From: a virus
Strand: one strand, 5' to 3'
Virus record (IMG/VR): IMGVR_UViG_3300045988_058602
Location: 90,765-154,764 of that record
DNA length: 64,000 nucleotides
Positions 4,879 to 64,000 of the stretch are shown here, piece after piece. Position numbers and translations under genes: made by a program. The notes below the pieces were generated by a model. It was not told the origin of the DNA. It did no database searches and worked only from the letters and a program-made list of their open reading frames with translations. The stretch's first letter is position 1. Each line of letters begins with the position of its first letter.

Positions 4879-5347
4879 CTACGACATATTTTAAGATTTC
4901 ATAACTTTCTTCTAAGCCCGCCCTATCGTCTAGTAGAATATTGTAATAAGGCTTTCTAGAGTTCGGAAATAGTCTACTGCTTGTAAAAGGAGGTATAATC
5001 ATATCATTAATAAGATTTCCTATCCTCATTTGGACACACTCTACTTGTTTCTCTATAATTTTATTTTCGTTTTCCTCTGTAGAAAGTAAAATCATTTCAA
5101 AACCTAACATAGTACAACGTCTCAGTAGATTAATAACACAACTATAATCTCCTCCAGTATTATGATAGTCGAAGATAGTGTTATCAAAGTCGAAAGCGAC
5201 TATTAGCTTTCCGTATTTCTTATACTCTTCTAATAGTCGCTTCTTACAAGCCTCTTTTCCAAATGGATGGTTAAAACTTTCTATAAAGTCCTTCATTAAT
5301 TCGCTGTCTAATTTCTTTAAGAGTGTACTCCTTTTTAAGGACGCCAT
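4856..5347 (-). CDS. HAD-superfamily hydrolase-like protein (163 aa)
   Basis: Motif I FDFDNTI (DxDxT). Confidence 0.45.
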   Translation of the reverse strand: MASLKRSTLLKKLDSELMKDFIESFNHPFGKEACKKRLLEEYKKYGKLIVAFDFDNTIFDYHNTGGDYSCVINLLRRCTMLGFEMILLSTEENENKIIEKQVECVQMRIGNLINDMIIPPFTSSRLFPNSRKPYYNILLDDRAGLEESYEILKYVVDEIIKLN

Positions 5348-6833
5348 CTTCGAACACAGTCTCTAAACAGCCTCCACTTTCTACCTCAGGAGTTACTTGG
5401 TCTTCAGCATAGTAAACGCCATTAACGTCCTGATAGACAGCAATTAGACCTTTAAGAGAATTTTTAGTTCCATCATCTGTTTTAGGATGTTTGAATATTT
5501 CTTTCAATTCTCCATTAACTACACAAGCAGTAGCTTTGATTGCAAAGCCTAGACTATCTCTACTTGCATACTGATATGAGAATGAACCAACACCAAGAAC
5601 AAGATTACAAGCTGCCATGTGGGCATTCTCAAGTCTCATATAGATTTGCTTTTGACGTTCTAAAGTAATAGAATCTCCATACAATAAGCCTATCTTAGTG
5701 CTTGGATAACGGTAGTCCTTGGAAGTAGTATTCCAACCGAAGATCTTACCAAGCATATAGTATGCTCCGTAATATTGACCTTCTGATACTTCTACGTATT
5801 CTGCATCGTCATTAAACGGAGCATAACAGCAGTAGTATTTACCTTCCCTTATTCTTGTATTGAAATGAGGATTAGTTCTCAGACCACAAATAATATCTAC
5901 CGGGTCTCCACTATCGGGACGAATAACTACACGACCGTCACGAGCCATAATGTCTTTCTTCAACTTAGGAAGGAAGTTTTCAACAACATTCCAGAAATCC
6001 CAAGTATCAGACACTATGGAAACAAACCCAGTAGGATATAACTCATTAATGAGACGTTTATATGTTCCTAACTCGTCCTCTTCTCCTCCTGCACACATTA
6101 CCGAATGTTCAGTAGCCGGAACAGTAGCAGCAATCAATTCACTATCAGAATTAGCTCCATAATATTCTTCAAGAGCTGCAATAGCAGGAATAGTTTCACT
6201 TCCTACAAATGAAGTCATATGAGCCATACCAGAAATAACAGACGCTTCCAAACCAGCCATTCCTCTCATAGAGAAGTCATGACACAAGAAATCCAGGTTT
6301 ACATCCTCCGGAAATCCAGTATGTACTGAGTGTCTTTTGAGTTCTTTCTTATAGAGTCTTGCTCTAGTGGCAGAGGTACAAGGCATCCACAAAGTACAAC
6401 TAATCAAAGTCTCTAGATAATTAGTTAACCAAAAGAACTCTGGTTTCGTATTAGTAATAGTCATCATAGGAACTCTAATAGGACATACTGAACCTTCCGG
6501 CAACGCTTTAATACGAATAGGGAGATATCCTAAATCATACAAAGCCTCAATATGTCTATATCCCACGGACTCAATTCCAACGAAGTTGTGGACTCTCCGA
6601 TAAAACATTTCTATAGCTTTCTCTTTAGGCAATACAAAGAAATTCTTATTAAATTCGTCGATCAAATACTTTTTAATTAAATATTGGATTCCGAATACTA
6701 CAGAACCTTCGGTAGCTTCTGGAAAGTACTTGTTACTTCTCGGAGTCCAGTTACTATAAACTTGTTCAGTACCTTCTGGGTACATCCTGTGATGGCCTAA
6801 TTTGTAACCATCTGTTGCATTAATTATTTCCAT
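5271..6833 (-). CDS. nadV: nicotinamide phosphoribosyltransferase (NAMPT/NadV-like)
   Basis: 520 aa; N-terminus ATDGYKLGHHRMYPEGTEQVYS matches the conserved NAMPT N-terminus ATDSYK..H...YP. Confidence 0.8.
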   Translation of the reverse strand: MEIINATDGYKLGHHRMYPEGTEQVYSNWTPRSNKYFPEATEGSVVFGIQYLIKKYLIDEFNKNFFVLPKEKAIEMFYRRVHNFVGIESVGYRHIEALYDLGYLPIRIKALPEGSVCPIRVPMMTITNTKPEFFWLTNYLETLISCTLWMPCTSATRARLYKKELKRHSVHTGFPEDVNLDFLCHDFSMRGMAGLEASVISGMAHMTSFVGSETIPAIAALEEYYGANSDSELIAATVPATEHSVMCAGGEEDELGTYKRLINELYPTGFVSIVSDTWDFWNVVENFLPKLKKDIMARDGRVVIRPDSGDPVDIICGLRTNPHFNTRIREGKYYCCYAPFNDDAEYVEVSEGQYYGAYYMLGKIFGWNTTSKDYRYPSTKIGLLYGDSITLERQKQIYMRLENAHMAACNLVLGVGSFSYQYASRDSLGFAIKATACVVNGELKEIFKHPKTDDGTKNSLKGLIAVYQDVNGVYYAEDQVTPEVESGGCLETVFEDGVLKKEYTLKEIRQRINEGLYRKF

Positions 6834-9226: not shown

Positions 9227-10243
9227 TCATTGCTCAGAAACTATTACAATTCTGTTAAATTCATTATCTCCAAAATCAGTAGTAACTCCACACCCCTTCA
9301 CGGTAAGTTTGTCTTCCGGAGCACCATAGTTAACTAGAGCCTTCTTCATAGATTCCGCTCTAGCATTAGCTAATTTGTTGTTGAAGTCAATAGGTCCCTC
9401 TTCAGAAGCATATCCCTCTATAACATATGACTTACCACTATTTGCTATGTAAGCTGCTAATTCGGACACAGCAACATTAGAGGTAGCAGATATTTCAGAG
9501 GAGTTTTGTAGGAATTGGATTTTAGGAGTAAGTAATTCTACCTTAGTAATTTCTATGGTATCTACCTTAACTACCTCAACAGGTTTGCGAGCCATAAGTT
9601 CATTATTCTTCTCTCTCAATTCATTAATAGACGCATTTAAGCTTTCTATTTCCGAATCATCATAAAGTTTCATAACTGGGAAATTCCCTTTGCTCGACTT
9701 AAATCTGTAAGTAGCTCCTACATAAACATTGACTTCTTGGTTTAATGGAGTAGTTTTAGGAAGTAGCATATATTCTGGGGTTATATTTAACGCCCACGTA
9801 TCAGTAATGTTGAAATTACATCTTACTGCACCACGCGCAGATACGTTATTATAGACGTATCCATAGGTATGATACCAACCTGCTCCTATAATCAATACTG
9901 GTTCAAACAGACGTCTATTGCCTTCATAGCCACATACCAGATTACTAAGATTGGTAGTAACATTAGCCGTAAGGTTGTGTGAATCAAAGAATGTCTTATT
10001 TCCCTGATTCATACCCGCTACCATGTCTAATTCTAGGCCAAAGATGGGTGTAATTTCTTTACCTACAGCAATATTCACCAGAATATCATTAGGTTCAGCC
10101 CAACTTCTCTGATTGTCCCAGACTGTAGTTCCAACATTACCGGAAATATACCAATTGTCTTTCAAACTTCCGGTTTCTACAACTTGTGCGCTTGCAAACG
10201 CACACATTAAACACAAACAAATAATACTAAAAATTTTCTTCAT
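9227..10243 (-). CDS. OmpA-family outer-membrane protein
   Basis: Signal peptide, beta-barrel-like N-terminal domain, and an OmpA C-terminal motif SYVIEGYASEEGP...NNKLANARAESMKKAL. Confidence 0.7.
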   Translation of the reverse strand: MKKIFSIICLCLMCAFASAQVVETGSLKDNWYISGNVGTTVWDNQRSWAEPNDILVNIAVGKEITPIFGLELDMVAGMNQGNKTFFDSHNLTANVTTNLSNLVCGYEGNRRLFEPVLIIGAGWYHTYGYVYNNVSARGAVRCNFNITDTWALNITPEYMLLPKTTPLNQEVNVYVGATYRFKSSKGNFPVMKLYDDSEIESLNASINELREKNNELMARKPVEVVKVDTIEITKVELLTPKIQFLQNSSEISATSNVAVSELAAYIANSGKSYVIEGYASEEGPIDFNNKLANARAESMKKALVNYGAPEDKLTVKGCGVTTDFGDNEFNRIVIVSEQ

Positions 10244-20628: not shown

Positions 20629-20778
20629 AGATAAGTTTAATTAATTTTAATGACAGTGTGATATGCAAGCCATTACACCACAGCCTCGATATTTAATCCC
20701 AGTACCATATTTCTCTGAGGATTTTTACTTGTTGTTTGATTTGTTCAGAAATTTTCTACATATTATTTACAGTGTTAG

Positions 20779-20850
20779 TTGGGAAGGGCAGAGTTGAACT
20801 GCCGTCTAGAAATTATCAGTTTCTTGTTCTAACCGTTAAACTACATCCCA
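20779..20850 (-). tRNA. tRNA-Ile(GAT)
   Basis: Manual fold: anticodon stem AGAAA/TTTCT, loop CTGATAA, T-loop TTCAACT. Confidence 0.65.
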
Positions 20851-20876
20851 ATCGGTTGAACTATAGCCCTGTCATG

Positions 20877-21438
20877 TGGACCTAACGGGAGTCGAACCCG
20901 TGTCCAAACAACCCTTATTACAAGGATAACGTGCGTCTCATTTTTATTACATCAGCTAGTGAGTTCTAGCATTTAGATAGTTTTATTAGAAGAGCTGGAT
21001 TCTTTACAGTAGAGGTGAACCAGCAGTCCTCCTACTAACTAATTTACAAACTACCAAACTGGGGGGCTGACTAGAAGTCATTCTTCCACCACTCCATTTA
21101 CGTTGGAGAACGTCTATTTGTAGCCCATAGATAGGCAGTGGAGATTTCAGCTCTACTAACCTTTGGCTTTCAAGTTAATGCATCTAAGCTTCACTGTAAC
21201 CTGTAGGTACTATGATTCTTCCCCGAAGGTCTCGTTATAACACTTAGATACAAACCTCTTCTGTTTCTAGGTCTCCCCATTAACCCGACTTGATTAATAT
21301 TGTCTATTAATAAGTCAGCAGCTTAGGCTGCCATTCTTACAGGTGCAATTTCTGCAGTTATTTGTTTTCTTCGTTTAAAGAGATTGCGCTCTACACGTCC
21401 TTATAATTCGTAATCGCCTGTCAAATCCAAGTAGGCCC
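20877..21438 (-). ncRNA. ssrA: tmRNA (ssrA)-like gene
   Basis: 5' end GGGCCTACTTGGATTTGACAGGCG resembles the tmRNA 5' tRNA-like domain. The 3' end GGACACGGGTTCGACTCCCGTTAGGTCCA resembles the tmRNA T-arm and acceptor. The 5' GGGCCTA pairs with the 3' TAGGTCC. An internal candidate tag frame reads GCAGAAATTGCACCTGTAAGAATGGCAGCCTAA, i.e. AEIAPVRMAA followed by a stop. Confidence 0.6.
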
Positions 21439-21480
21439 ATGTTCCAGTTTATCTCTGATTAGAAAACTGGAGAAAAGAAA

Positions 21481-23311: not shown

Positions 23312-23336
23312 AATTTTTTAAATAAAGTTTGTGGAC

Positions 23337-23404
23337 ACGCAGGGACTCGAACCCTATCTTCCGGTGTGCAAAACCAGCGCTCTAGCCATTTGAGCTAACG
23401 GCCC
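23337..23404 (-). tRNA. tRNA-Ala(TGC)-like, possibly defective
   Basis: 5' half GGGCCGTTAGCTCAAATGGCTAGAGCGCTGGTTTTGCACACCGG is a canonical Ala 5' half with the G3:U70 pair, but the 3' acceptor strand pairs at only 4 of 7 positions. Confidence 0.4.
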
Positions 23405-24003: not shown

Positions 24004-24249
24004 CAATAGTTAATTTTCTCCACGGGTGTAGATAAGTACCCCTTTGGTACTTACCTTTTAGTAGTATCTTTACTCTAGACCTCTGTAGGGAGGTGGAATA
24101 GTTCCAGAAACTAACCATGTATAGCTCTTAGAACTCTGTTCAAAATACCACTTAGCAGCTTTCTTCACAACATTAATTACTTTCTTCATAACATCAAAGT
24201 TTAAAATTGTTAATAATTAATCTAATTCAGAGCCACAAAAGGAGTTTCG

Positions 24250-24328
24250 TTGCGGAGGTAGGATTCGAACCGTTTATGACGATTTCTAGGTTATGAGCCT
24301 AGCGAGATGACCACTTCTCTACTCCACG
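24250..24328 (-). tRNA. tRNA with CAT anticodon (Met or Ile2-type), copy 2, with an aberrant T-stem
   Basis: Good D-arm GAGA/TCTC and anticodon arm CTAGG-CTCATAA-CCTAG, but poor T-stem pairing and an odd variable region. Confidence 0.4.
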
Positions 24329-25110: not shown

Positions 25111-25131
25111 ATTTTTAAATTTAAAATTAGA

Positions 25132-25216
25132 ATCCGTGGAGGGATTCGAACCCTCATTAAAGATTTCTCTTTTCAGTTTTGCAGACTGATGGCTAAACCA
25201 TTCACCCACACGGATA
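25132..25216 (-). tRNA. class II tRNA (long variable arm) with anticodon GCA and U73
   Basis: Acceptor ATCCGTG/CACGGAT, anticodon stem TCAGT/ACTGA, loop CTGCAAA, variable-arm hairpin AAAGA-GAAA-TCTTT; unusual body for a Cys anticodon. Confidence 0.45.
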
Positions 25217-28680: not shown

Positions 28681-29181
28681 TTATAGTTCTATATTCTTTA
28701 TCTTAGGAGCTATATTAACCATTTCTCTATAATAATTACGTATTTTCTCAAATGCCTCATCAGGTATTATACTACAGTCAATTACTGATCTGTCATATAA
28801 CATATTACCAGGAAACCAGGCTATGTTTAGCATTCTCTGTTTAGAGTAAGTAATTCTGGTTTCTTTGGAGTCAATATAGACCTCATAGCAATCTTCGTTT
28901 ACCATACAAGAGTTGCCAAACTCTTTTGTTAGTTGGAAGTACATAAAAGAGTAATTATTGAAGTTAATTCTAAAACACTTCCCTACGTAGCTTTTAAACA
29001 GCTCTTCTCTTTTTTCCTCTTCCCTCCTTTTAGTATCTCTTCTTTCCTGTTCTTCTCTGTCTAGGTAATCACAATATTCCTGCAATGAACAGCCGGGATG
29101 CTTCTTAGCATATACTTTCATAGGATTTTCATTCCACATATCATACCATTTTAAGTTGCCCGTATACATCAAACCCTGCAA
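28681..29181 (-). CDS. hypothetical protein (166 aa)
   Basis: Intact ORF. Confidence 0.45.
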   Translation of the reverse strand: MQGLMYTGNLKWYDMWNENPMKVYAKKHPGCSLQEYCDYLDREEQERRDTKRREEEKREELFKSYVGKCFRINFNNYSFMYFQLTKEFGNSCMVNEDCYEVYIDSKETRITYSKQRMLNIAWFPGNMLYDRSVIDCSIIPDEAFEKIRNYYREMVNIAPKIKNIEL

Positions 29182-30535: not shown

Positions 30536-30598
30536 GTTTAGCTTAACTATTCTCTCGAACCGTTAAGCCCATATTTACCATGAAAAACACACAATGCG

Positions 30599-30675
30599 TG
30601 GGACGAGGCAGGATCGAACTGCCGCTATCGTCCTGGATTTTCAGTCCAGCGCTCTACCAACTGAGCTATCGTCCC
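30599..30675 (-). tRNA. tRNA-Phe(GAA)
   Basis: GGGACGATAGCTCAGTTGGTAGAGCGCTGGACTGAAAATCCAG..., perfect acceptor. Confidence 0.65.
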
Positions 30676-47187: not shown

Positions 47188-48102
47188 ATGGACAAAAGTA
47201 AAATTACAAAACAAAATGGGAACATAGCTTTCGAGGAGGAGGCTCATATTTATTATGATGTTACAGAGCCTGAACAGAAATTTATATCTGTGACGACTTT
47301 AATACATTCTTTCACCCAACCCTTTGACAAAGAGTTCTGGTCAGCCTATAAAGCATTAGAGAAACTTCTGTCTAAAGAAGATTGGGCTATTGAGAAAAAG
47401 TCATTACTGAATACTAAGAAATTTGACAAAGTTCTACTTGAGCTTCATAACATTACAGAAGACGAGTTTAATAAGGAACAACAAGCTATCTTAGATGCGT
47501 GGGATTTAGAGAATAGGAACTCTTGCGAAAGAGGAACTAAGATTCATGCAGATTTAGAAAACTCTTTTTACAAAAAGAAGAAGAACATAGACCTTAGTAA
47601 ATATCAAATAGGTGGTAAGTTTGAGTGTGTAAAAGACCATAATGAATTAGATTTAGAGAATGGGGTATATCCTGAGTATTTAATATCTAGAGTATCGGAA
47701 GATGGAAAACTTAGAATAGCTGGACAAATCGACCTACTAGTTAAAAGAGGTAATAAGATAATTATAGGAGACTGGAAAACTAATAAGAAGATAGAAACCA
47801 AGAGTTTCTTTAATTCTAAAACCAAATCATCAGTTAAGATGAAATATCCTCTAAATAATTTAGATGATGTTAATTATTGGCATTATGCACTTCAATTAAG
47901 TACTTACGCCTGGATGATACAAAAAAAGAATCCGGAGTTTGAGATTGAAGATTTAGTATTAGTTCACTTTGATCATAGTGATAATATGACAGTATATCAT
48001 CTACCTTACCTAAAAGATGAAGTAATTAGAATGCTATTGTTTTATAAAAAAGAATCTGTACTAGCTGAAAACAAAAGAAAACGTCAACGTATTGAATATT
48101 AA
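47188..48102 (+). CDS. PD-(D/E)XK nuclease of the RecB/Cas4/YqaJ exonuclease family
   Basis: GQIDLLVKRG...IIGDWKTNKK (D...DWK) and QLSTYAWM (QxxxY) motifs. Confidence 0.6.
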   Translation: MDKSKITKQNGNIAFEEEAHIYYDVTEPEQKFISVTTLIHSFTQPFDKEFWSAYKALEKLLSKEDWAIEKKSLLNTKKFDKVLLELHNITEDEFNKEQQAILDAWDLENRNSCERGTKIHADLENSFYKKKKNIDLSKYQIGGKFECVKDHNELDLENGVYPEYLISRVSEDGKLRIAGQIDLLVKRGNKIIIGDWKTNKKIETKSFFNSKTKSSVKMKYPLNNLDDVNYWHYALQLSTYAWMIQKKNPEFEIEDLVLVHFDHSDNMTVYHLPYLKDEVIRMLLFYKKESVLAENKRKRQRIEY

Positions 48103-48104
48103 TT

Positions 48105-48320
48105 ATGACATTAGAAGAAATTGAAGAACGGTGGAAAATATGTAGACGATGTCCTATATGCGACCAAGATAATGGATTATGTAATGGAAATTTATATCTA
48201 AATCCAAAAAATAATGATATAAGTATAGGACCAAAAGAAGGTTATATAAAAGGATGCGGATGTCTACTAGAGAAGAAGATTCCAAACGAGAAAAAACATT
48301 GTCCTGCAGGGAAATGGTAA
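48105..48320 (+). CDS. Cys-rich zinc-finger protein (71 aa)
   Basis: CRRCPICDQDNGLCNG...CGC...HCP. Confidence 0.4.
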   Translation: MTLEEIEERWKICRRCPICDQDNGLCNGNLYLNPKNNDISIGPKEGYIKGCGCLLEKKIPNEKKHCPAGKW

Positions 48321-48637
48321 TGTACGGAACTCCCGTGCTGTATAGACCCGATAAGGCTTATGTACTTACTTATCAGGAAACAAAAGAAGAAAGTAGAGAA
48401 GATATGACAGAAAAATGGATTAAGGCAATATTTACTAAGCCTCTAACAATATTAAAGAGTATATATTTTAATATATTCGGAATAAATCAAGATTTAGCAA
48501 CCAAGAGATTAAAGATTTGTAATACTTGTCCTCACAAGTTATATACTTCTGTTGGAGAAGTATGTGAGGAATGTGGTTGTATATTAGAGAATAAAACTAG
48601 AATAGAAGATGAACATTGTGATTTATGTAAATGGTAA
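48254..48637 (+). CDS. Cys-rich zinc-finger protein (127 aa)
   Basis: CNTCPHK...CEECGC...HCDLC; overlaps the previous ORF in another frame. Confidence 0.4.
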   Translation: MRMSTREEDSKREKTLSCREMVMYGTPVLYRPDKAYVLTYQETKEESREDMTEKWIKAIFTKPLTILKSIYFNIFGINQDLATKRLKICNTCPHKLYTSVGEVCEECGCILENKTRIEDEHCDLCKW

Positions 48638-48645
48638 AATGAATT

Positions 48646-49371
48646 ATGGAAAATTTAAGAACAGAATTAAACAGTAACGAGAAACTAGCCTTATCTTTGA
48701 CCGGAATGGAAGGAACAGGAGAACACTTTATTTTAAATGGTGAAGCTGCAGATAAGACATTACTTAGAGAGAAACAAGAAAGATTTAATACAGCGGTAGA
48801 TGAAATAAAAGATAAATTCTCAAAACATAATAAAGCTTTAGAGGATTATGCTAATTCATTATCAGAAGATATGAATGGTGTAGAGATTATGCCTATGTAT
48901 GGGTATGCTCTTATCAAGCCGTTTGAACAGAACCCATTCCAAAAAATTAAGACTACTAAATCAGGATTAATTACAGACTTAGGAGGGTTTGCTCCAACAT
49001 ACAAGTCTAACGAGACTGGAGAAATTGAGGAAGAACAACAGTTTATCAAGGTAGGTACTGTAGTAGAGGTAGGCCACAAGTGTGAGTTCTTAAAGCCTGG
49101 TGATATTGTATTCTATACTATAGCTAGTGAATGTATGGTTCCATTTTACAAACTAGGATTCGTAGTAGTTAATGAGAATAGAATCATGGCTGTAGTTAAT
49201 GAGAAACTAACTGAAAGGAGAGACCAAATTAAGCAATCTCAAGACTGTATAAATGTAGATATAGATAAGATCCCAAAAGAGCTTGGAGATAGCTTACCTG
49301 AGAGAATAAAGAATTGGATGGAATACAAAAAGATAGGAATTAATTTACTTAGAGAGGATGGAAACAATTGA
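48646..49371 (+). CDS. hypothetical protein (241 aa)
   Basis: Intact standard-code ORF. Confidence 0.5.
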   Translation: MENLRTELNSNEKLALSLTGMEGTGEHFILNGEAADKTLLREKQERFNTAVDEIKDKFSKHNKALEDYANSLSEDMNGVEIMPMYGYALIKPFEQNPFQKIKTTKSGLITDLGGFAPTYKSNETGEIEEEQQFIKVGTVVEVGHKCEFLKPGDIVFYTIASECMVPFYKLGFVVVNENRIMAVVNEKLTERRDQIKQSQDCINVDIDKIPKELGDSLPERIKNWMEYKKIGINLLREDGNN

Positions 49372-49426
49372 TGAGAAAGTTTATTTCAAACCTGGGGATT
49401 GTGTTACTTTACGGTAGTGTAAGGTA

Positions 49427-49579
49427 ATGCATTCTCCAGTAATGCTTGTTCTGAGAAGGGAATCAGCATTATTTAAAGATAACCAGGGATTGCGCGGACT
49501 TAGATGTAGATGGTTTACTGATTCTGGACTGATGCAAGAAGCAGTATTTAATACAAAAGACTTAATTAAAGTAGAAGAA
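49427..49579 (+). CDS. small protein (50 aa)
   Basis: MHSPVMLVLRRESALF...; ends TAA 2 nt before the next ATG. Confidence 0.3.
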
Positions 49580-49581
49580 TA

Positions 49582-50796
49582 ATGGCGAAAATACAATTTG
49601 ATCCAGAGTTAATGTAGCATATCAAGACTATATATGGAGACGCAGAGTTAGACGGAAGAACTTTACAACAGTTGCATTAGACTTGGCAAAGTAATCCGAA
49701 CTCTATTAGAAATACTGCATAGTAGAAGAAAAGAAGTGCTGTGCCAGCTATACAACAAAAACCTATATTAGGATTAAAGCCGTCTACTCCTACTATTCCT
49801 AAGAAAATAAATGCACCTTAGCAACAAATTCAAAACGACGACTTAAGAGGAGTCTAGGGGTTTGGTACAGCATTTAGAGAAGCCAGAAAGAGAGGACTAA
49901 CTCAATTCAAATGGGGGAAAGGAGTGTATGGAACATAGTTAGCTAATGGAAAGAAAGCAACAGTAGAGGTAGGAACTCCAGTAATGAATAATCCCTATGT
50001 TACATATAGTCAAGACGGAAAAAGAGCTACTACGTACCAAAATCAAGTAGACTAGGAAACTGGAGAGCATACTGGAACTATCCAAGAACAATGGATAAAG
50101 CCGCCTACAACTAATATGTATGGGCAGAAACTAACTCCAGAATAGCTCAAAAATTAGAGAAGTTGGGAACATATACCAAAGGCAACTGCTAGATAGCAAC
50201 GAGTTAAATATCAACAAGGAGGAGCAATGGCTAATTAGGAAGAATTACAAAAAGCATTTATGGCATACTTAATACAGGATGCCGCAGCACAAGGAATACA
50301 ATTACAATCTGAGTAGGATTTAGAACAATATGCTCAGCAATTAGGAGAAGACGGAATTAAAGCCAAATACCAGGAATTTATGCAAAAAATGCAAGGTGGA
50401 GTTATGGCTAGATTAGGAGCTAAGCTTGAGTACTATAAAAAATTAAAAGGAGTTTGCCCAGAAGGGGAAGAACTTGTTTATTTTAAACAAGGAGGTAGAA
50501 TTTGTAAAGCCTGCCAGAAAGCTTAGAAAGGTGCTAAGGTAAAAGGTAACGAGGTAGACAAATTTAAGAAAGGAAGAGCACAGTATAAGAAAGATATGAA
50601 ATCAGCGAAAGATGAAGCTTCCAGAGATTCTATATCTATTAATAAATATAATGATTAGGAAACCATGTCTAATAAAGGACATAAAGGAAACTTCCAAAAG
50701 GGAAAATGGGTTCCTGATAGAAAGCAATATACTAAAAAGGATGCTTGTGGCTCTAAAATGAAAGTAAGCAAGTGTGGCTCTAAAATGAAGAAGTAA
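49582..50796 (+). CDS. late protein (404 aa), TAG-recoded, Gln-rich
   Basis: Single frame from ATG 49582 to TAA 50794 with about 20 in-frame TAGs and no TAA or TGA. Confidence 0.55.
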
Positions 50797-50829
50797 GAAA
50801 AGATTGTCGAATGTTAATGATTAATGATT

Positions 50830-51390
50830 ATGAATGTATTTAACTATAACACTTTAACTAAATAGTTAGAAATAAATGAACCAGAGATTCTTCTAGTTAA
50901 AGAGTTTAAAGCTTTACTGCAAAGAGATAAATCTGTGGAAAAGGATAGAGCAATTAGAGAACTATCATACATTTATTTAGCTATTGATTGGAAGAGTCCG
51001 TATAGCTAGTACTCTGAATATGAAAGGCACGATGAAGCAATTAATGATTCTGGATTAACAGAATCAGAATTTAATGATCCGATATTTAGGGAAGCATGTA
51101 GAAAATATAGAGCATTATAGGACTCAAATAAATCAATTAAATTATTAGAAGCTGCTAGAAGAGCTGCTGACTAGTTTATTGATTACTTCGATACTATTGT
51201 AGACTTAAATGAACGTGACACTAATGGAAAGCCAGTATTCTCTGCTGAGAAAGTAATGAAGGAAATGGCTAGCCTTCATAAAGTTCACGAAGAATTAATT
51301 ACATTAGAAGATGAGGTTAAAAAAGAACTTACTGAATAGTCTACCGTTAGAGGAGGGGCTACAGATGGTTTTGATCCTGGAGAATTTTAA
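50830..51390 (+). CDS. putative small terminase / DNA-packaging accessory protein (186 aa), TAG-recoded
   Basis: Frame ATG 50830 to TAA 51388 with 6 in-frame TAGs; the call rests on its position directly upstream of TerL. Confidence 0.4.
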
Positions 51391-51392
51391 TT

Positions 51393-53753
51393 ATGCCAAG
51401 AAAGAAAAAGATATTACCTGATGAACTATAGACTATAGTAGATTAGGTAAGAGAAAAAGAACATAAAGAAGATGCTGTAGAGGCAAGAGAGCTAGTATAG
51501 AAAATAAGAGAAGAAAGGGTCAAAAGTGCAGACTATTGGGATGTCAAGAAAGGAGACAAGATAGATGTTTTTGACCCTACTTTGTCTTATGAGATAACTG
51601 GCTATAGACCTATTGATGAAACGCATGGTTTGGACTTTAATCCCGAATGGTTCACCGAAACCAGAGAAGTATACAGAAAGACTGGGAAGTATTGTCCCTA
51701 CTTAAAAGACAGTAAGAGATACAATGAATTTTGGAAAGAGTAGTACAGAAGATGTAAATATGGAATGACAGTTAATGGTTATACTATTACTGGAGATAAC
51801 TATTTCTTCTTAAATTTCTATTAGCTTCCTATTATTGATGATAATAAAGCATCCGGTGAAGGAACTAATAGTGACTTCCCTATATTCTTTGCATCCCATT
51901 ACATGTTCTTCCATTACTTACAAATGGCTAGAGTACTACATAGACATGCAGCTTTAATGAAGGCTCGTTCAATCGGATTCTCAGAAATAAATGCCTCACT
52001 ATCCGCTCGTATGTATTCTGTAATTAGAAGAAGTAGAGTAATGATTACTTGCTTTAATGATACCTTCCTTAAAGGTACATTTAGTAAGTTTGATAATGCT
52101 CTAACATTTTTAAATACTTGCACAGGTGGAGGATTCTTTAAGCTTCGTCTAATTGACCAGGATTTAAGAAAGAAGTCTGGTAAGTAGGTTAAAGTAAACG
52201 GATAGTTTGAAGATGTTGGATTTAAATCAGAAGTAGTAGGAATAAATGGAGCTAAACCATCTAATATTCGTGGAGACCGTGTTGACTTATTAATATATGA
52301 CGAAGCAGGGTCTTGGCCAGGATTAGATACTGCTGTGGTACAAGGACAAGAACTTTGTGAAGTCTAGGGTAAGCCTCGTGGAACAATGTTGTTTGGAGGT
52401 ACTGGTGGTGATATGGGTGCTCCATTAGCAGGTCTTAAAAAGATTTACTATAATCCAAAAGCTTACAAAGTTCTTCCCTTTAGACATAATTATACTCAAG
52501 ATGGGACTACTATTGAGAGTGGATTCTTTATTCCATATTTTGTACAGTCTTTGAACTCCGAATACATGGATCATAGAGGCGTATGTAATACCGTAGAATA
52601 TAAGAAGTATCTGTAGGAAGAAAGAGATAATCTATTAGCAGTACCCGATGACTATTTAAAGAAGTGTGCTGAACGTTGTTGGAATGCAGAAGAAGCCTTC
52701 AATCTAGAAGGTGTTAACAAGTTTAACAAAATTCTTATTTCTGATCAATTAGCTAATATAAGACTAAAGAAAATAGGTCCCAGACCAGAATGTGGTTATA
52801 TAGATTACTTCTATAAAAATAATAAACACACTGCTGATAACATTGATGGATTTAAGTGGATTCCTAATACTAAGGGAAAGGTAAAGATTCTGGAACATCC
52901 AGTATGGTCTGACCTATATAAGGAGTAGATGGATAAACTTAGATAGGAAGCAGAGGAAAGAGGAGAGGAATTTGAAGCACCTGTATATAAAGAAATGCAT
53001 AATCTTTATATTGCAGGAATAGACGGTATTGATATAGGAGCTAATTAGACCTCGAAGGAAACTAAAGATCCTTCTGACTTCTGTATAACTATTAAGAGAA
53101 GGGCATTTGGTATGAGTGAGCCATAGTATGTAGCAATGTATAAGGACAGACCTGGAGACATTCGAGAGGCTTACAAAATAGCTATGTGTTTACTTAGATA
53201 CTACAACTGTAAGGTAAATATAGAAGCAACTCGTGTTGGTATGATTACCTGGGCTAGAGAAAAGAAATGTTTGAATTACTTTATGAAACGTCCTAGAGCT
53301 ACTCTTACTGATGTTAAAAATGGAACTACTAAATAGTATGGAACTCCAGCTACTAAAACTATTATAGAACAACACACTGATCTAACTGCTGCGTTTGTGG
53401 AAGATTATTGTCATACTATATGGTTTGAAGAAATGTTGGAATAGCTTACTGGATATAATGACGAGAATAAAGGTAAGTTCGATATTATAGCAGCTATGGG
53501 TATGACAGAATTAGCAGATGAAGAGTTGTCTGGAAGATAGCCTATAGTTGTGGAAAAAGAAGTTGAATTGTTCAGGGATTTTGGTTATTATTACGATGAG
53601 AGAGGAATAAAAAGATTTGGAGTTATACCAACTAGCGAAACTCCAGAATTAAATATGCAAGACGATGAATACGATGACCCATACAGAATTGAAACAAGTG
53701 ATCCTAGAGTATATGAGAGACTTATACCAAATGGAATATATAGGCGGACTTGA
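51393..53753 (+). CDS. terL: terminase large subunit (TerL), TAG-recoded
   Basis: Frame from ATG 51393 to TGA 53751 joins the ORF-track fragments 51903, 52386, 53136 and 53550. It contains an ATPase Walker B motif DLLIYDEAGSW and a nuclease motif IAGIDGIDIG, with about 17 in-frame TAGs. Confidence 0.75.
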
Positions 53754-54009
53754 GATTGAGGATTTGAATCCAGTTGGTTACAAAATATCTTTTAACTTTG
53801 ACAGGTCTGAGATGCCATTAGTAATCATAGCTGATTTACCCGATGATGAATTTCTGCCTTTTATTAAAGAAGAATTAAGAAGTAGGAAGTTATAGAGAGT
53901 TAAGTATTATAACGCCACTAAGCTTCCTCCAGAACAACATAATACATGTTATGAAAGAGAAAGAATTGATAGACAAAACAAACGAGGCTATTGCGGAACT
54001 TGTGTATGA
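53665..54009 (+). CDS. possible small overlapping ORF (114 aa) with 1 TAG
   Basis: Alternative frame overlapping the TerL 3' end and the portal 5' end; uncertain. Confidence 0.2.
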
Positions 54010-56125
54010 TAAATATGAGCTTTAGAAAGCTTATAATTATTATAATGGTAAAAGAGATCCAGAATAGTTTCGCTATCTTGAAGAGAATTTTGGAATAGGC
54101 AGTCCTACATCAGTAGAATTTACACCACTACTTAAGAAGCATGTAGATGCTTTAGTAGGGGAATATCTAGGAACTCCAATACTCCCGAAAGTCTCTTGCA
54201 AAGATTCAGATACTATCAGTAATATAACCAGAGAAAAATAGCTAGAGATAACTAAAGGAATAGTTAAGTTTTTAAAAGATCACTTAAGTAATGCTATCTT
54301 AAGCTTTATTGACGGAAAAGATATTACTGATAAAGCTGTAAAGACTCAGCTAGATAAGGTTATATAGGATATTGATTAGTCATTCATTTCTCAGTATGAA
54401 ATTGCTGCGCAGAACATTATTCACTACCTAATGCAATCTAGGGAAACTGATCTTATTACTAAGTTGCGGTAGTTATTAACTGACTTACTAATTACTGGAT
54501 ACACATTCTTTAGAGTAAAGTCTTCTTTCTCCGGAACTAATGTGGAGATAGAGGTTCTTAACCCATTAAATACGTTTGTTGATAGAAATCCAGAATCTCC
54601 ATATGTCAAGAAATCATATAGAGTTGTTATTAGAAAATGGATGAGTAAAAGCCAAATACTAGCTAAGTATGGTAAAGAAATATCTAGGGAAGACTTAAAG
54701 AGGTTAAAAGATGAATGGAGAGCAGATGATTCTGCTGCCGTATACAGAAGAGTTTATGGAGATGTTTGTACAGTGGTTAATGAAGATCAAAATCATGAAA
54801 CCATTCCTGGGTATCCAGATAATGAATATAGTGCTCATAGATTTTAGTTAATTCCGGTCTACGATGTAGAGTGGATAGAGACTGATGATGATTTCAAAAT
54901 GCAGAGATACAATACTATAAGGATAGGAGAGGAAATCTATATTCTTAGAGGATTAGACAAGACTGCAATGAGGTCTAAAGACGATCCTAACTCTTGTTCA
55001 TTATCAGTAAATGGAGTTTATTTTCTAAATCGTTCTCAGTAGCCATATTCTTTAATACTTAAGTGTGCACATCTACAGGATAGATATGACTTACTTAACT
55101 ATTACAGAGACAACTTGATAGCTAATAGTGGAACCTCAGGAGTTATTATGGATATGTCATTACTTCCTACTAACTTAGGAGTACATTGGCCAGAAAGAGT
55201 ATAGAAATGGCTAGCTTATAAAAAAGCTGGTATTCAGTGGGTTGATACTACTTAGGAGGGTAGAAATGACAATGGAAACGCTCCTTTAAATACTATCTTT
55301 AATGGATTTGATGACACCCTTAAAGCGTAGGCTGTATAGGCTATTGAGTTAGCTATTCAATCAGTAGAATAGACTACATCATCTATAACTGGAGTATTTA
55401 GGGAAAGACTTAATGGAATAGAGACTCATGATGCTGTAACTAATATTAAGCAAGGAGTCGCTAACTCTTATATAGTAACTAAACACTATTTCCAACAAAT
55501 GGACTTGATAACTTGTGAAATATTATTAGATAGTCTTAATTAGGCTAAAGTAACTTACAAGAAAGGGTTAACTGGAACTATTATATTGGGAGATAAGTAT
55601 TAGTAGATATTTACTGCCCTTCCTGAATATTTCACAATGACTGATTTTGACATTCATATAACCTCCAGCACTGAAGTTATGGAAGATTTATAGACTATTA
55701 AAGCTATGATTCCGGAGTTCCTTAAGAGTTAGCAAATGGATGCTGGTATAGTTTTTGAAGCATTAACAGCTAAGAGTTTGACAGACTTAAAGTACAAGGT
55801 TAAAAAAGCTATGCAGGTTTAGAAAGAAGAGAACAATCAATTACAATAGTTGTAGTAGAAGTTGGAAGAAACTTCATAGCAAGCACAACAACTACAATAG
55901 GAATTGGAGAAAGCTTAGTAGAAAATAGAAAGGCTAGACGAACAAAAACTTGGACTAGAACAGTAGAAGATGCAACTAGAGTATAAGGTTAATTGGCTTA
56001 AAGCTCAGTCTGATTCTACTTACAAAGATAGACAAATGGATATTGAAGAGAAGAGAACTGAAATAGAGTTAGCATAGCTTCATGACGGAAATCCATATAA
56101 CGATAAAGTAAGACAAATACATTAA
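53951..56125 (+). CDS. portal protein (724 aa), TAG-recoded
   Basis: Frame ATG 53951 to TAA 56123 includes the fragment 54542-54847. N-terminal AYNYYNGKRDPEQF resembles the portal YYxGxQ motif. The C-terminal coiled coil becomes Gln-rich when TAG is read as Q. Confidence 0.6.
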
Positions 56126-56126
56126 T

Positions 56127-56996
56127 ATGGCTACAGCAGGTACAATAGTATATAATAAAGATTAGCAACAAATATATCCCATTTCTCATGCAGAGGTGGT
56201 AATTAGTAATGCTTCTGGAAGTAAGTCAGATGTAGAAGACAACCTTGTAAAATTATGGAAAAAGGTCTCAGAACTAAGTGGGGACTCGGAAGCAGCTAGT
56301 AATATCATGGTAGTAGTTACTTATTGTAAAACAAATACCAAAGATGAATCCGAAGTAAAAAAGTTGTCAACATGGAGTGATATTTTTGAACTACCAGACT
56401 CAGAAAGACCGTATGTTTGGAAGAAAACTCTATACACGTATAAAGGAGACACTGCTAAACTTAATGAGATTTACGAAATTGTTGCTACAGATATTGCTGA
56501 GAAAATTCAGAATATCTATATTGCAAGATCAACTGGGGTTGCACCAGTTATTACTTATCCAATACTAAAGGATGGATATGGAGATCCTATATTAGACTCT
56601 GAAGGAAATACTTAGGAAGATTTGACTGCCTTTGACAATAAATTACCAGAAGGCTGGTCAGAAACTCCAGTTAGTATTGGTCCAGCTACTCCATATGTAT
56701 TTATATCAACACGTAAGAGAGTAGAAGGATTATGGAAAAGATATTCTGAACCAGCTCAATACGGTAGGTGGGCATTTGACAGTTAGTTAGAGTTACGATA
56801 TACCATTACTTCTGGAGATAAACCAGCTGTTAATACTACAAGTGACGATCCTGGAAGTTAGTGGTCTAGCGATACTCCAGATAATTTTACTGGAAAAATG
56901 TGGATGATTACTGCAACATCAGTAAACGGAGTATTGAATAGTGATGAAAATAACGTTAGATGGCACGGTCCTCATTTGATGTCAATTATACAATAA
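56127..56996 (+). CDS. structural protein (289 aa), TAG-recoded
   Basis: Frame includes the fragment 56196-56615 and has 4 in-frame TAGs; TAA stop overlaps the next ATG (TAATGG). Confidence 0.5.
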
Positions 56997-57727
56997 TGGA
57001 ATTTAGTATTGATATACATACCCAGATTACTGGGGAAATAACTATTGAAGACTTCTCTAAAGAATATGGATAGTATATTGATGAAGATTTAGAAGTAGTA
57101 ACTTCTTACGACTCTTATAAGTATAGTGAGAGTGCTACTCTAAATACTATCATCAAGGTAAGTATAGGGGATGCCACACTAATAGATGTCCTTTTAAATG
57201 ACCATACAGAAGATTTAGATTCATGTACATTTAAAGTAAAAGAGGATGGATATTATGTGGTAGATCATATAATACTTCCTAATATGAAGTGGTATGAAAA
57301 TTCATCTGATGAATATAAGGAATACTACGAAACTATCTATGTTACAGATGGGGAGAAACTATATAAAGAAGTAGAAGGAGAGTTAGAAGAGTGTACGGTA
57401 AAGGAAATTCTAGAAAGAAACATAGAAGGCACTACTATCAAGAAGTGTAAGGTAGATGTATTCTTTACAGGGAATTTGCAATAGTGCTATATTAATTATT
57501 GTAAAAAATTATTTGACGGACTCCTAAATAAATGTGTTACCAATGAACATGAGGCAGATATTTTTGCCAGAGATTTTATTTGGATGACTCTCAACATTAT
57601 AGATTATTTAATAGGCTTTAAACAATTCATGGAAGCTGAAAGATTGCTAGCAATGTTCCGCACTTGTGGAGGATTCTGCAATACTCGCCATCATGGACAT
57701 AAACATATAAGTTGTGGATGCTCTTAA
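56996..57727 (+). CDS. hypothetical late protein (243 aa), TAG-recoded, Cys/His-rich C-terminus
   Basis: Frame includes the fragment 57257-57484; ends CGGFCNTRHHGHKHISCGCS then TAA. Confidence 0.5.
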
Positions 57728-57882
57728 AAGAAAGGCTATTAAAAGGTATGAAGAGTTTCTTGGAAGAATTAAGAAAGGATATAGACCAGATTATCAAGAT
57801 ATTTTGAATTTAATCTGTTTTATTAATCTACCTGTAAAACTAGATAATCACGAATTTATTAAATAGCAACTATTAAATCATA

Positions 57883-59469
57883 ATGATACAGCCTATTTAC
57901 ACTTCGGTAAGCAATGCTGACATAAAGCCTTGTGGAAAGAAAGGACATTTAATAAAAAGTGAGCCTATACCACTTCTGAGAGATAATTACTTAGGAGAAT
58001 ATAGAACAGAACTAGAAAGAGCTAAGGTTAGAAAAAACTTAGGAATTGCTGATGAGTAGAGTCTTCTTTGGGGAAACATTAGTGGAACTATAGAGGCCTA
58101 GAAAGACTTAGTTTAGTATATTGAACAAAAATGGACATATACTAGCGATGTTGCAGAGAATATTAACACTGTAAAAGATGCATTAGACTATGCATTGTTT
58201 TTTATTAGTTAGTATGAGGCTAATACTGAGGAAATAGAAGAGATAAAGGTTGATATAAGTAATATTAGGACTAGCATTTAGGTATTAGGAGAAGATCTAA
58301 AAAGAGAGATTGATACTAATAGGGAAGGACTAAATAACTTGTCTTAGGATATAGTTGAAATTAATTAGGCAATATCTAATATCAATGCTGCTATAGAAAA
58401 TATAGACGTTGATAAGAACATTCTTAATTGGATTAAAAACAATCTTTAGAACTCTAAGACTGTAGAGATAAAGGAAGATAATACTATAGAAGTTATTCTT
58501 TCTAAGCAGGATGATAATGCTATTCATTTAATTGAATAGGAATTACCTCCTGCAGAAGAAGGGGAACCTTCTACTATAACTCTTCCAGGAATCTATGTAA
58601 AGAATCTAGAACCTTAGTTAGAAGAAGCTTAGAAATCTATAGAAGAAGTATAGAAAGCTTAGGAAGAGACTAATGAAAAAGTTAGTACTAATAGTGAGAG
58701 TATTACAAATATTTAGACTAGTCTAGAAACTATAGCTACCTATTAGACAGAACTTCCGGATGATACAACTTCTACTGTTATAGAAGGTACTACTGTTGAA
58801 AAATTAAAAGGAAAACCATTTAATGAAATCATAGATACTTTACTATTCCCAACAGTAGTCAGAGATTTAATATATCCATAGTTGTATTATAGCTTTACTT
58901 CCCAAATTGTGGAAGTAGGAACCGCATTACTAAACCCAACCTTAACTTTCGTAAAAAATGATGCAGGAGAAGAAACTGACAGAGAAGAAGTTATTACTTA
59001 TAACGGTTCTCCTATAGAGTCTGCTACATATGATTCTATTGGAGTTTATACTCATTCTGGTACAGTAAACTATGCTGCTGGAGAATACCTAGTAAACAAT
59101 AAGGGAGAAATCACGGATAAGAGGGTAGAAGCTGGTTCTATATCAGCAACTGCACAAGTAACAGCTACTTATCCTTGGTATTCCGGAAATACTGATGGGC
59201 TAATAAAATAGTCTTTAGTTCCATTTAATTAGGCTTCTGGCACTATTACATTTTCGTTAAGCGGTAGGGCTATTATAAAACTACCAGGAAGTAATACTCA
59301 GCTAAATTCCTTCACAGTAGATGGAGGATTGGGATATTTGAATGTCGATCTGAATGGTTGGGAAGCTTCTACTGAACAAATAAATGGATTCCCATATAAA
59401 GTATGGACTAAGAAGGATACCTACTCTTCAGCACTACCTCACCAAATTAACTTTATTCTATCACAATAA
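57883..59469 (+). CDS. tail/structural protein with coiled coil (528 aa), TAG-recoded
   Basis: Frame includes the fragment 58882-59211 and about 20 in-frame TAGs; TAA overlaps the next ATG. Confidence 0.5.
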
Positions 59470-61337: not shown

Positions 61338-61342
61338 ACAAG

Positions 61343-61552
61343 ATGGGAACAATTTATATTGACGGACAGTTTAAAAGCTCTGCTAAGCCTGTAAAAGTTG
61401 TTAGTGGTAGTGTAGGAGGGTCTGGAGTAGATCCTGATACTCTCAAGAACTATGCTACTAAAGCAGAACTTCAGAAAGCTGTTGAGGACTTAACTGCTTC
61501 CATAGAAGGAATAGATCATGATGTAGTTGAAGAAACTTTAATAATATAGTAA
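61343..61552 (+). CDS. small late protein (69 aa)
   Basis: The ORF-track fragment ends at TAG; the real stop is the TAA immediately after it. Confidence 0.4.
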
Positions 61553-61553
61553 T

Positions 61554-63374: not shown

Positions 63375-63444
63375 GATATAAAAATATAAAAAATCAGTTT
63401 AGATAATAAACTGTAGGATATTACTTCTAAAAACCGTTGATTGG

Positions 63445-63552
63445 CAAAAAAGAACTGCTAGTAGGCAGCAACGCGAATAATGGCAGCAATGCAGGTCTCA
63501 GCTATTTCAATTCTAACAATGACGTCAGCAATGCCAATTCCAATGTCGAGTT
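63445..63552 (+). repeat. DGR template repeat (TR)
   Basis: ctgctagtaggcagcaacgcgaataatggcagcaatgcaggtctcagctatttcaattctaacaatgacgtcagcaatgccaattccaatgtcgagtt is rich in AAT, AAC and AGC codons in the VR reading frame, and no TR codon can mutate to a stop by A-to-N change. Confidence 0.8.
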
Positions 63553-63749
63553 ATTATATATTTAGAAACAATTTTAATTTTTACCTTATTTAGTTTGCTA
63601 AGTAATATCCTTGCCTCTAGGCAAAAAATAACGTAGTGTTGAATGAAGGGTGTTAGTAGGTTATCTCGAACGCTTCCGATGAAATATATAAAAAATTGAA
63701 ACGTGTAGGACATTTGCACGAAAGGGTGTATGATTTATGGAACATCGAA

Positions 63750-64000
63750 ATGGCTGATGATAGAGCCAGAAAAAATAAATCTGTTCGATGTGGAATTAAG
63801 CAACATGATAAAAATAGATTAAAAGAAAATAAGGAATTATCCCACAAACTAAGGGACCTAATTTATCAGACGTCTGAATATAGTACTTTCATAATATATG
63901 AACCTAAGGGAAGATTAATCTTTAGACTTCCATACTATCCTGATAGAATAACTCATCATGCGATAATGAATATTATGGAGCCTATATGGACTAAAATATT
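63750..64000 (+). CDS. DGR reverse transcriptase, 5' partial (continues beyond the window)
   Basis: MADDRARKNKSVRCGIKQHDKNRL...GRLIFRLPYYPDRITHHAIMNIMEPIW has the RT domain-1 pattern P..DR..HHA....EP, and it starts about 200 bp downstream of the TR. Confidence 0.65.
   Translation, partial: MADDRARKNKSVRCGIKQHDKNRLKENKELSHKLRDLIYQTSEYSTFIIYEPKGRLIFRLPYYPDRITHHAIMNIMEPIWTKI

Follow-up and report, generated by a model that had tools for sequence, protein, structure and literature searches.

A long one-piece tmRNA gene in the tRNA cluster of a TAG-recoded, crAss-like gut phage

Introduction

A cluster of tRNA genes in the virus record IMGVR_UViG_3300045988_058602 holds a stretch of some 560 nucleotides (nt) that appears to encode no protein, and the question raised by this locus is what it encodes instead. 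The locus lies at positions 20,877 to 21,438 of a 64,000-nt stretch of that record (positions 90,765 to 154,764), which was analyzed as a whole and is called the window here; coordinates refer to the window, and all features of the locus are on its minus strand. An earlier reading of the letters alone, termed the sequence-only reading below, had proposed that the locus is a transfer-messenger RNA (tmRNA, ssrA) gene, pointing to tmRNA-like ends that pair into an acceptor stem and to an internal frame resembling a proteolysis tag. As checks, it had named a covariance-model search and ARAGORN with the -m option; the lack of a covariance-model match, or a fold lacking the pseudoknots and resume codon, was to count against the idea. 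Here, we describe the locus as a one-piece tmRNA gene of unusual length that probably encodes a functional tmRNA.

That some phages carry tmRNAs is well documented. Three of 30 mycobacteriophages were shown to have one in 2006 (PMC1475703), huge phages carry tmRNA and SmpB (PMC7162821), and ARAGORN detected tmRNA in 402 of 18,146 phage genomes, i.e., 2.3% (PMC9004378), so it was fair of the sequence-only reading to call a phage-encoded tmRNA uncommon. What appears to be new is the lineage of the carrier, the size of the RNA with its cassette structure, and a blind spot of ARAGORN, which found 3 of the 52 members of the gene family described below; nothing here alters what a tmRNA is. Our literature search found no paper describing a tmRNA in crAss-like phages, apart from mentions in methods sections, and tmRNA is unmentioned in papers on the Zeta group and on recoding, including PMC7886860 and PMC12386605.

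Results

The Rfam tmRNA model RF00023, whose covariance search the sequence-only reading had suggested, matched positions 20874 to 21438 over its entire length (model positions 1-374 of 374) with 69.3 bits, above the gathering score of 47. The E value was 6.6e-25 in the search of the whole window and 9.3e-27 in a local search, which is far beyond chance. The one-piece gene itself runs from 21438 to 20877, 562 nt up to the discriminator A. It starts at 21438 with GGGCCTACTTGGATTTGACAGGCG and ends at 20877 with GGACACGGGTTCGACTCCCGTTAGGTCCA; thus, both ends had been placed exactly to the base, and the region is as free of open reading frames (ORFs) as had been claimed, with no ORF of at least 30 amino acids (aa) on either strand between 20886 and 21480.

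Several other identities were considered for the region and rejected. The model of two-piece (circularly permuted) tmRNA, RF04321, reached 23.0 and 18.6 bits, well short of its gathering score (47). A group I intron as the source of the extra length found no support, as no intron family matched between 20700 and 21600 at E values up to 1 and the extra length is spread over several inserts. Among all other Rfam families, the same search returned only a chance-level miRNA match, and none explains the region. When the tmRNA was compared by blastn with 50,697 GenBank phage records, only two fragments were retrieved, both from the same phage and both unannotated. A scan for sigma-70 promoters and terminators gave none above shuffle expectation, the sole "terminator" being the hairpin at the stop codon of the tag.

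Relatives were collected from IMG/VR contigs by three pattern searches. The exact 3' 29-mer of the gene occurred in 33 contigs of about 45-270 kb, giving 22 distinct full-length sequences of 518-577 nt, and an invariant internal 21-mer, AGACCTAGAAACAGAAGAGGT, occurred in 88 contigs; a scan with a degenerate 5'-end pattern returned mostly chance matches and yielded one distant relative (L074) and eight unrelated phage tmRNAs. In total, the family comprises 52 distinct full-length sequences of 513-596 nt from 88 contigs. All eight members that were run against Rfam scored above the gathering threshold (56-99 bits), L074 with 91 bits. In an alignment of 26 sequences, 74 base pairs (bp) in 11 helices were formed in 99.1% of cells, and pairing fell to 36-47% when the partners were slid by 1-3 columns. 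Nine of these pairs change on both sides, compared to 3.5 ± 0.7 in shuffles, and none of 500 shuffles reached the observed value; because the sequences are related to each other, the shuffle control overstates the significance, and more weight falls to the slid control and to the pattern seen from helix to helix. Across all 52 sequences, to which the following counts refer unless stated otherwise, the helices that define a tmRNA (acceptor stem, P2, helix 5, and T arm) covary.

With tmRNA nt i located at window position 21439 - i, the acceptor stem of the tRNA-like domain, foreseen by the sequence-only reading, is formed by GGGCCUA (nt 1-7, 21432 to 21438) and UAGGUCC (nt 555-561), the latter occupying 20877 to 20884 together with the discriminator A562. 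These seven base pairs are 100% paired, with three compensatory pairs, and include G3:U70, which is found in 52 of 52 sequences. CCA is not encoded at the 3' end, where CAT follows the discriminator A; since 26 of the 27 tRNA genes in the window and Bacteroides ssrA likewise do not encode it, post-transcriptional addition of CCA would be expected. The acceptor strand is followed by a D-loop-like motif, UGGAUUUGAC (nt 10-19, 21420 to 21429), common to Bacteroides and Prevotella ssrA. The 5' strand of P2, consisting of P2a, P2b, and P2c (nt 19-46, 21393 to 21420), pairs with nt 505-534 (20905 to 20934); P2a is 97.8% paired with four compensatory pairs, P2b is 100% paired with five, and P2c is also 100% paired, while the 26-sequence analysis gave 100% pairing for P2 overall. 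The T arm, ACGGG-UUCGACU-CCCGU (nt 538-554, 20885 to 20901), is 100% paired, with compensatory change in four of its five pairs. Upstream of the gene, an inverted repeat in the 5' leader, CCAGTTT...AAACTGG (21444 to 21470), lies 5 nt from the mature 5' end and, as read from the sequence, is a possible candidate for a processing or terminator element.

The internal frame AEIAPVRMAA followed by a stop, which the sequence-only reading had likened to a proteolysis tag, was confirmed at 21355 to 21323 (GCA GAA ATT GCA CCT GTA AGA ATG GCA GCC TAA). The resume codon GCA (nt 84-86, 21355 to 21353) is directly preceded by AAAUAACU, and the stop codon UAA is nt 114-116 (21325 to 21323). The family encodes 11 tag peptides, namely AEIAPVRMAA, ATYSEVRMAA, AAYSEVRMAA, AERSDVRMAA, AERSDYRMAA, AERSEYRMAA, AEIDYNRMAA, ANNSVRLAA, GNTEVRMAA, GNTVYRMVA, and GETEGFRMAA. 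All of them are in frame and 9-10 aa long, with a GCN or GGN resume codon after an A/U-rich context and the stop at the same structural position. The C terminus is (R)MAA or LAA in ten variants and MVA in the eleventh, with a hydrophobic residue preceding the last two; the MAA ending that had been noted as departing from the usual LAA belongs to the norm of the family, RMAA, and RLAA occurs in one member. In one lineage, a synonymous change of GCC to GCG accompanies a change of the stop from UAA to UGA. All tag stops are UAA or UGA, with UAG in no family member; this fits a UAG-decoding phage, if only weakly, as UAA is the usual tmRNA stop anyway.

The stop codon lies in a hairpin (nt 109-120) that is followed by helix 5 (nt 123-152), the two spanning 21287 to 21330. 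Compensatory changes are found here as well, e.g., A-U to G-C in 10 sequences, and the stop hairpin shows a change of CAGC to UAGC matched by GCUG to GCUA in the partner strand; the upper part of helix 5 contributes four compensatory pairs. Altogether, the covariance-model match, the compensatory changes seen in the 26- and 52-sequence comparisons, and a tag frame conserved through 11 variants uphold the proposal of a phage-borne tmRNA within the tRNA cluster.

The "pseudoknot" domain (nt 153-500, 20939 to 21286) is expanded and at 348 nt is about twice the size of the host type; cmscan gave inserts of 42 and 157 nt for it. In the cmscan alignment, the length beyond the 374-position model is distributed over the loop of helix 5 (about 12 nt), the stretch behind this helix (28 nt), the "PK2" hairpin (32 nt), and the "PK3" region (144 nt), four inserts in all. 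RNAalifold, minimum-free-energy folds of each cassette type, and an all-against-all covariation screen resolved hairpins and two long-range helices in this domain. The first of these helices pairs GGAGA (nt 163-167, 21272 to 21276) with UCUCC (nt 295-299, 21140 to 21144) and covaries by insertion, GGAGAA occurring with UUCUC(C/U) in 18 of 18 sequences and GGAGA with UCUCC in 33 of 33. The second pairs GUUUGGUAGUUU (nt 380-391, 21048 to 21059) with nt 457-468 (20971 to 20982); its G385 pair is GU in 27 sequences, GC in 13, and AU in 12. A terminal hairpin, GCUAG/CUAGC (nt 469-484, 20955 to 20970), precedes the 3' strand of P2 and has two compensatory pairs. Further conserved hairpins are UUAG..CUGA, CUCCA/UGGAG (replaced by CCUACUUU/AAAGUAGG in another cassette type), and UGAC-UUCG-GUCA (GACC/GGUC elsewhere); a possible hairpin-loop pairing of CUCA with UGAG and possible partners of GUGGUGG are too G/U-rich or too invariant for testing.

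Within this domain lies a variable central cassette of about 260 nt (nt 187-448, 20991 to 21252), delimited by alignments and by blastn of the window against two family contigs (L025 and L011). At an E value of 1e-10, the cassette cannot be aligned to either contig, whereas the flanks (2.5 kb) are 97% and 94-99.6% identical; thus, the center of the tmRNA behaves as an exchangeable cassette within an otherwise mosaic genome. The single-sequence folding energy of the cassette is unremarkable (z = -1.0), and, barring the chance-level miRNA match, no Rfam family matches it at E values up to 1.

We compared the phage gene with chromosomal ssrA of Bacteroidota. The native tag in Bacteroides is GETNYALAA, which in B. 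thetaiotaomicron acts as a strong degron (bioRxiv 10.1101/2025.03.18.644028). A back-translated GETNYALAA pattern matched at least 120 Bacteroidota genomes, from which 95 ssrA genes were extracted; they are 365-424 nt long, with a mode of 394 nt, and 394-398 nt in Bacteroides and Prevotella. The phage RNA is therefore about 170 nt longer than that of its likely hosts. The chromosomal genes (e.g., Bacteroides xylanisolvens L246:674-1067 and Prevotella L222) are built like the phage gene: their acceptor stem contains G3:U70, P2 and a T arm are present, a hairpin lies upstream of the tag, the tag has 9-10 aa with AA at its end, and helix 5 holds the stop. They differ in the tag itself (GETNYALAA versus AEIAPVRMAA and its relatives), in PK1, which is shortened in the subfamily of the window, and in the pseudoknot domain, which in the phage is roughly doubled and mosaic. 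Identity of the window tmRNA to Bacteroides and Prevotella ssrA is only 38-43% for the 160 nt at the 5' end and 49-55% for the 125 nt at the 3' end. Shared details include the motif UGGAUUUGACAG, common to Bacteroides and Prevotella ssrA and the phage family; the acceptor GGGCUUG/CAGGUCC of some Bacteroides ssrA genes, which recurs unchanged in family member L168; the context AAUUUUA..U-GGC-xAx-ACU of the family members that resume at Gly, found in the chromosomal genes as well; and the absence of an encoded CCA from both. These shared details make a Bacteroidota ssrA the likely ancestor of the gene, with expansion of the pseudoknot domain thereafter, as judged by sequence comparison.

The tmRNA lies in the genome of a phage and not in flanking host DNA, since the surrounding phage ORFs are co-oriented with it and genes for the large terminase and portal are found in the same window. 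When TAG was read through, the fraction of the plus-strand block at 44-64 kb covered by ORFs rose from 0.34 to 0.92, which no other reassignment achieved. This late block (44000 to 64000, plus strand) contains the terminase (51393 to 53753), portal (53951 to 56125), and tail-like genes, with 4-28 in-frame TAGs per gene, and it is opened by an amber suppressor tRNA(CUA) at 44696 to 44768 on the plus strand. The early block on the opposite strand uses the standard code, and its ORFs of at least 100 codons end in TAA (34), TGA (16), or TAG (4). It is in this minus-strand (early/middle) block that the tmRNA is found, co-oriented with 25 of the 27 tRNA genes of the window; tRNA-Ile(GAU) (20778 to 20850, minus strand) lies 26 nt downstream.

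The large terminase shows 26% identity with Crassvirales terminases and 44-46% with those of unannotated human-gut phage contigs. Contigs carrying the genes that neighbor the tmRNA are about 181-192 kb long, and complete genomes of the family include IMGVR_UViG_3300045988_049479 (192,316 bp). For one neighboring protein, the index of the assembly collection lists 2888 blocks, and the context of the tmRNA is the same in the 88 IMG/VR contigs and in metagenome contigs of 181-191 kb. For the Zeta group of crAss-like phages, genome sizes of 145-192 kb are reported (PMC7886860; PMC12386605). By its size, gut origin, many tRNAs, and late-gene recoding, the carrier, a crAss-like phage, probably belongs to this group.

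Other RNAs and proteins were encountered in the window and around related genes. On the minus strand, a tRNA with anticodon UUA (41439 to 41509, 57 bits as a tRNA) is of the ochre suppressor type and, if active, would read UAA, the commonest stop of the phage and the stop of the tmRNA tag; 27 nt upstream of it is a RAGATH-14 RNA (41536 to 41742, minus strand; 156.6 bits versus a gathering score of 149.1), on which our literature search found no paper. Rfam identified a further minus-strand tRNA (23332 to 23404, 39.5 bits) that is absent from the ARAGORN list. Three tRNA genes on the same strand are oversized, for Cys (25130 to 25215, 86 nt), Met (24249 to 24328, 80 nt), and Phe (30598 to 30675, 78 nt), and may have inserts or unusual arms; Zeta crAss-like phages are reportedly rich in introns. 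The early block (minus strand; about 5271 to 6833, 9227 to 10243, 28681 to 29181, and neighbors) encodes a nicotinamide phosphoribosyltransferase, an OmpA-like outer-membrane protein, Band_7 proteins, a protein with a tRNA-ligase CPD domain (possibly for tRNA repair), a GIY-YIG nuclease, and RNase H. Elsewhere in IMG/VR, RAGATH-34 is located near family tmRNAs in three contigs (L074:147-254, L153:6283-6387, and L191:4815-4912), a RAGATH-1 hammerhead is present in L168:444-516, and GOLLD RNA is found about 1-3 kb from 405-nt tmRNAs in two contigs (L056:9321-9735 and L109:2405-2810).

Discussion

We consider it probable, with good confidence, that the locus encodes a functional one-piece tmRNA of the phage. 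Given the gene model, its conservation, and its location in a phage genome, established tmRNA biology would suggest a role in ribosome rescue along the following lines. The RNA would be transcribed together with the tRNAs, cut at its 5' end by RNase P, trimmed at its 3' end, and completed by the CCA-adding enzyme, after which host alanyl-tRNA synthetase would charge it with alanine by virtue of G3:U70. Host SmpB and EF-Tu would then deliver it to ribosomes stalled at the 3' ends of mRNAs with an empty A site; translation would resume at GCA, add A-AEIAPVRMAA, and terminate at UAA, freeing the ribosome and leaving a product that the conserved ...RMAA end would mark for host proteases. The likely benefit would be extra rescue capacity where decay of host mRNA in the infected cell yields many nonstop complexes. 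A more speculative thought is that the phage amber suppressor, by reading through UAG stops, would add to the load.

Of the two named checks, ARAGORN made no tmRNA call at 20877 to 21438, including in the run with the -m option. A number of points weigh against a working tmRNA or against parts of the role just outlined. The sequence-only reading had also looked to the pseudoknots and the resume codon, and here the outcome was divided: the covariance match and the resume codon are present, PK1 is reduced, and canonical PK2-4 could not be assigned. In the window variant, PK1 is a 4-bp hairpin (AGAG/CUCU, with the stem invariant and the loop CGCAAU; nt 47-60, 21379 to 21392) with a second helix of 2 bp at most, and PK1 is important in the tmRNA of E. 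coli. For PK2-4, the three folding and covariation screens applied to the expanded domain gave no convincing H-type pseudoknots. As judged by precomputed Pfam assignments, SmpB is absent from the gene calls, which span about 58 kb of the window, and from the family loci, and a tRNA-like domain that has diverged would thus have to work with the host protein. Expression, aminoacylation, and tagging are predictions that go beyond the gene model, and ...RMAA is a putative degron in Bacteroidota. Finally, the link to recoding discussed below is circumstantial, and six other phage tmRNA contigs in IMG/VR, four of them with the gene beside a tRNA array, have no suppressor tRNA in the fetched stretch.

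Some of these points lose force on closer view. The silence of ARAGORN was rejected as disproof of the gene, since other Rfam-positive tmRNAs longer than 500 nt were missed too, while 94 of 95 host genes were found; in the phage family, 3 of 52 members were called, all three with a wrong tag. The missed call is a limitation of ARAGORN on long tmRNAs and no evidence against the gene. As bona fide tmRNAs can dispense with PK2-4 in vitro and differ in them from lineage to lineage (reviewed in PMC3985003), their noncanonical form is no argument against membership, and demanding the pseudoknots was too strict. In 18 relatives with a longer PK1 hairpin, triplets in the loop and downstream covary (GUA/UAC in 12, GCA/UGC in 4, and one U:G case), supporting a second PK1 helix in these relatives, though not in the window variant. 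As for SmpB, tblastn with an E. coli SmpB query against the window and all fetched loci matched only an unrelated contig (L042), and in a profile scan of IMG/VR none of the best 80 matches fell on a family contig. Reliance on host SmpB is therefore likely, the searches having covered 64 kb of a genome with about 120 kb beyond. SmpB genes are common in "viral" contigs of IMG/VR in general (L328-L407), with at least 429 confirmed matches on contigs of up to 373 kb; some of these loci may be host DNA flanking prophages.

The same evidence bears on whether the gene still works at all. A captured copy of host ssrA that has lost trans-translation and is decaying as an inert passenger would account for the truncated PK1, the rearranged and mosaic pseudoknot domain, the failure of ARAGORN's structural rules, and the lack of a phage SmpB in the window and family loci. 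Decay, however, would not preserve an invariant G3:U70, compensatory changes in the acceptor, P2, helix 5, and T arm, which indicate purifying selection, or a tag that retains its frame, length, and stop in all 11 variants, a synonymous change and a swap of stop codons notwithstanding, in 52 sequences that differ by up to about 30%; we regard this explanation as very unlikely. Less probable still, to the point of being hardly credible, is that the locus is a remnant or tool of site-specific integration, i.e., an attP-type ssrA fragment. The 3' ends of ssrA genes are common attB sites. Fragments of ssrA in prophages are well known (PMC9004378), and L074 shares GGACGAGGGTTCGA with the T arm of Bacteroides ssrA, yet the gene in the window is complete and has a 5' half, tag, and P2 of its own, its 3' end (ACGGG...CCCGTTAGGTCCA) differs from that of Bacteroides and Prevotella (GAGGG...CCCTCCAGCTCCA), and no integrase family is found among the called genes, neither up to about 10 kb away on each side nor in the rest of the window.

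If the gene does work, it may do so with a twist. The cassette at nt 187-448 might be a separate module, be it regulatory, protein binding, or anti-defense, carried by a working tmRNA, for which the glutamine riboswitch embedded in the tmRNA of phage Melnitz sets a precedent (PMC9004378). The cassette cannot be aligned between genomes with 94-99.6% identical flanks, it sits in a domain about twice the host size, and covarying long-range helices bracket it; on the other hand, it has no Rfam match at E values up to 1 save the chance-level miRNA and a folding z of only -1.0, the entire phage genome is mosaic, and the cassette types share the anchors UUAGUA..CUGA, CUCCA/UGGAG, and GUGGUGGA, so that they look like diverged alleles of one domain. 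We therefore think a separate module unlikely. Somewhat more improbable, in our estimate, is that the phage RNA acts as a competitor, titrating host SmpB or replacing the degron GETNYALAA by ...RMAA, whereby tagged proteins would be spared or rerouted to another protease and a host response that depends on trans-translation would be blunted. In its favor, the conserved RMAA differs from the host ALAA and places a charged Arg at -4, while the N-terminal part of the tag varies freely, and again no SmpB was found in the window and family loci; the final AA and the hydrophobic residue at -3, the core of known SsrA degrons, are nevertheless kept, and one member has RLAA. A functional tmRNA that would serve ribosome rescue remains our preferred reading.

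How such a tmRNA might relate to stop-codon recoding deserves comment, as the sequence-only reading had already suggested that it could rescue ribosomes stalled by read-through, which by analogy is plausible. Suppressor tRNAs cause read-through to the ends of mRNAs, and the products are SsrA tagged (Ueda 2002, as summarized in PMC3985003); PMC6207430 describes cells lacking UAG termination as dependent on ribosome rescue. Extending this, the tmRNA might form part of a code-switch toolkit: tRNA(CUA), and possibly tRNA(UUA), would make ribosomes overrun the mRNAs of host and early phage genes that end in UAG, a high-capacity tmRNA of the phage, with its non-UAG tag stop and a phage-specific ...RMAA degron, would recycle the ribosomes and destroy the products, and the cassette would tune or protect the RNA. 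We hold this as a tentative and rather doubtful proposal. If true, ribosome rescue would be a so far unrecognized requirement of stop-codon recoding in phages. Phage tmRNAs also occur without signs of recoding, e.g., in mycobacteriophages; the safer statement is that the RNA would serve more generally to keep ribosomes available during infection.

The family has implications for how phage tmRNAs are counted. ARAGORN, used by essentially every virome pipeline, missed 49 of the 52 members and also an unrelated family of about 511 nt; hence, the figure of 2.3% for phage tmRNAs is probably an underestimate, and long ones may be systematically undercounted. Infernal with RF00023 recovers tmRNAs that ARAGORN misses. 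Beyond detection, a translation-rescue RNA is added to the gene set of a very widespread lineage of human-gut phages (crAss-like, about 185 kb, TAG-recoded), a concrete and testable link between stop-codon recoding and ribosome rescue is offered, and the tag variants and pseudoknot-domain cassettes provide a natural series for probing what a tmRNA tolerates.

Among known systems, the closest counterparts are the one-piece tmRNAs of mycobacteriophage cluster C (e.g., Bxz1), Stenotrophomonas phage Marzo, and huge phages, which are likewise complete, belong to large phages of lytic type, usually lie by a tRNA array, and are presumed to sustain translation (PMC1475703, PMC8928761, PMC7162821). Those RNAs are of ordinary length and detectable by ARAGORN, and some of the huge phages carry SmpB as well; six further one-piece phage tmRNAs that we found in IMG/VR measure 321-405 nt. 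The present gene, in contrast, is about 560 nt long and belongs to a crAss-like, TAG-recoded gut phage with no SmpB seen in 64 kb. Comparable length is reached by two other phage tmRNAs of 511-512 nt (L067:352-865 and L134:6490-7004), which start with GGGGGUGCCUGGAUUUGACAGG, score 81 and 79.5 bits with RF00023, and are also missed by ARAGORN; they represent a different sequence family, on a contig of about 43 kb, and lack the core AGACCUAGAAACAGAAGAGGU. The tmRNA of the OM43 phage Melnitz also contains RNA beyond the canonical parts, and upkeep of hijacked translation or amino acid recycling has been considered as its role (PMC9004378). It is a two-piece, circularly permuted molecule whose extra element is a recognized glutamine riboswitch, whereas the gene described here is one piece and its extra sequence has no match in Rfam.

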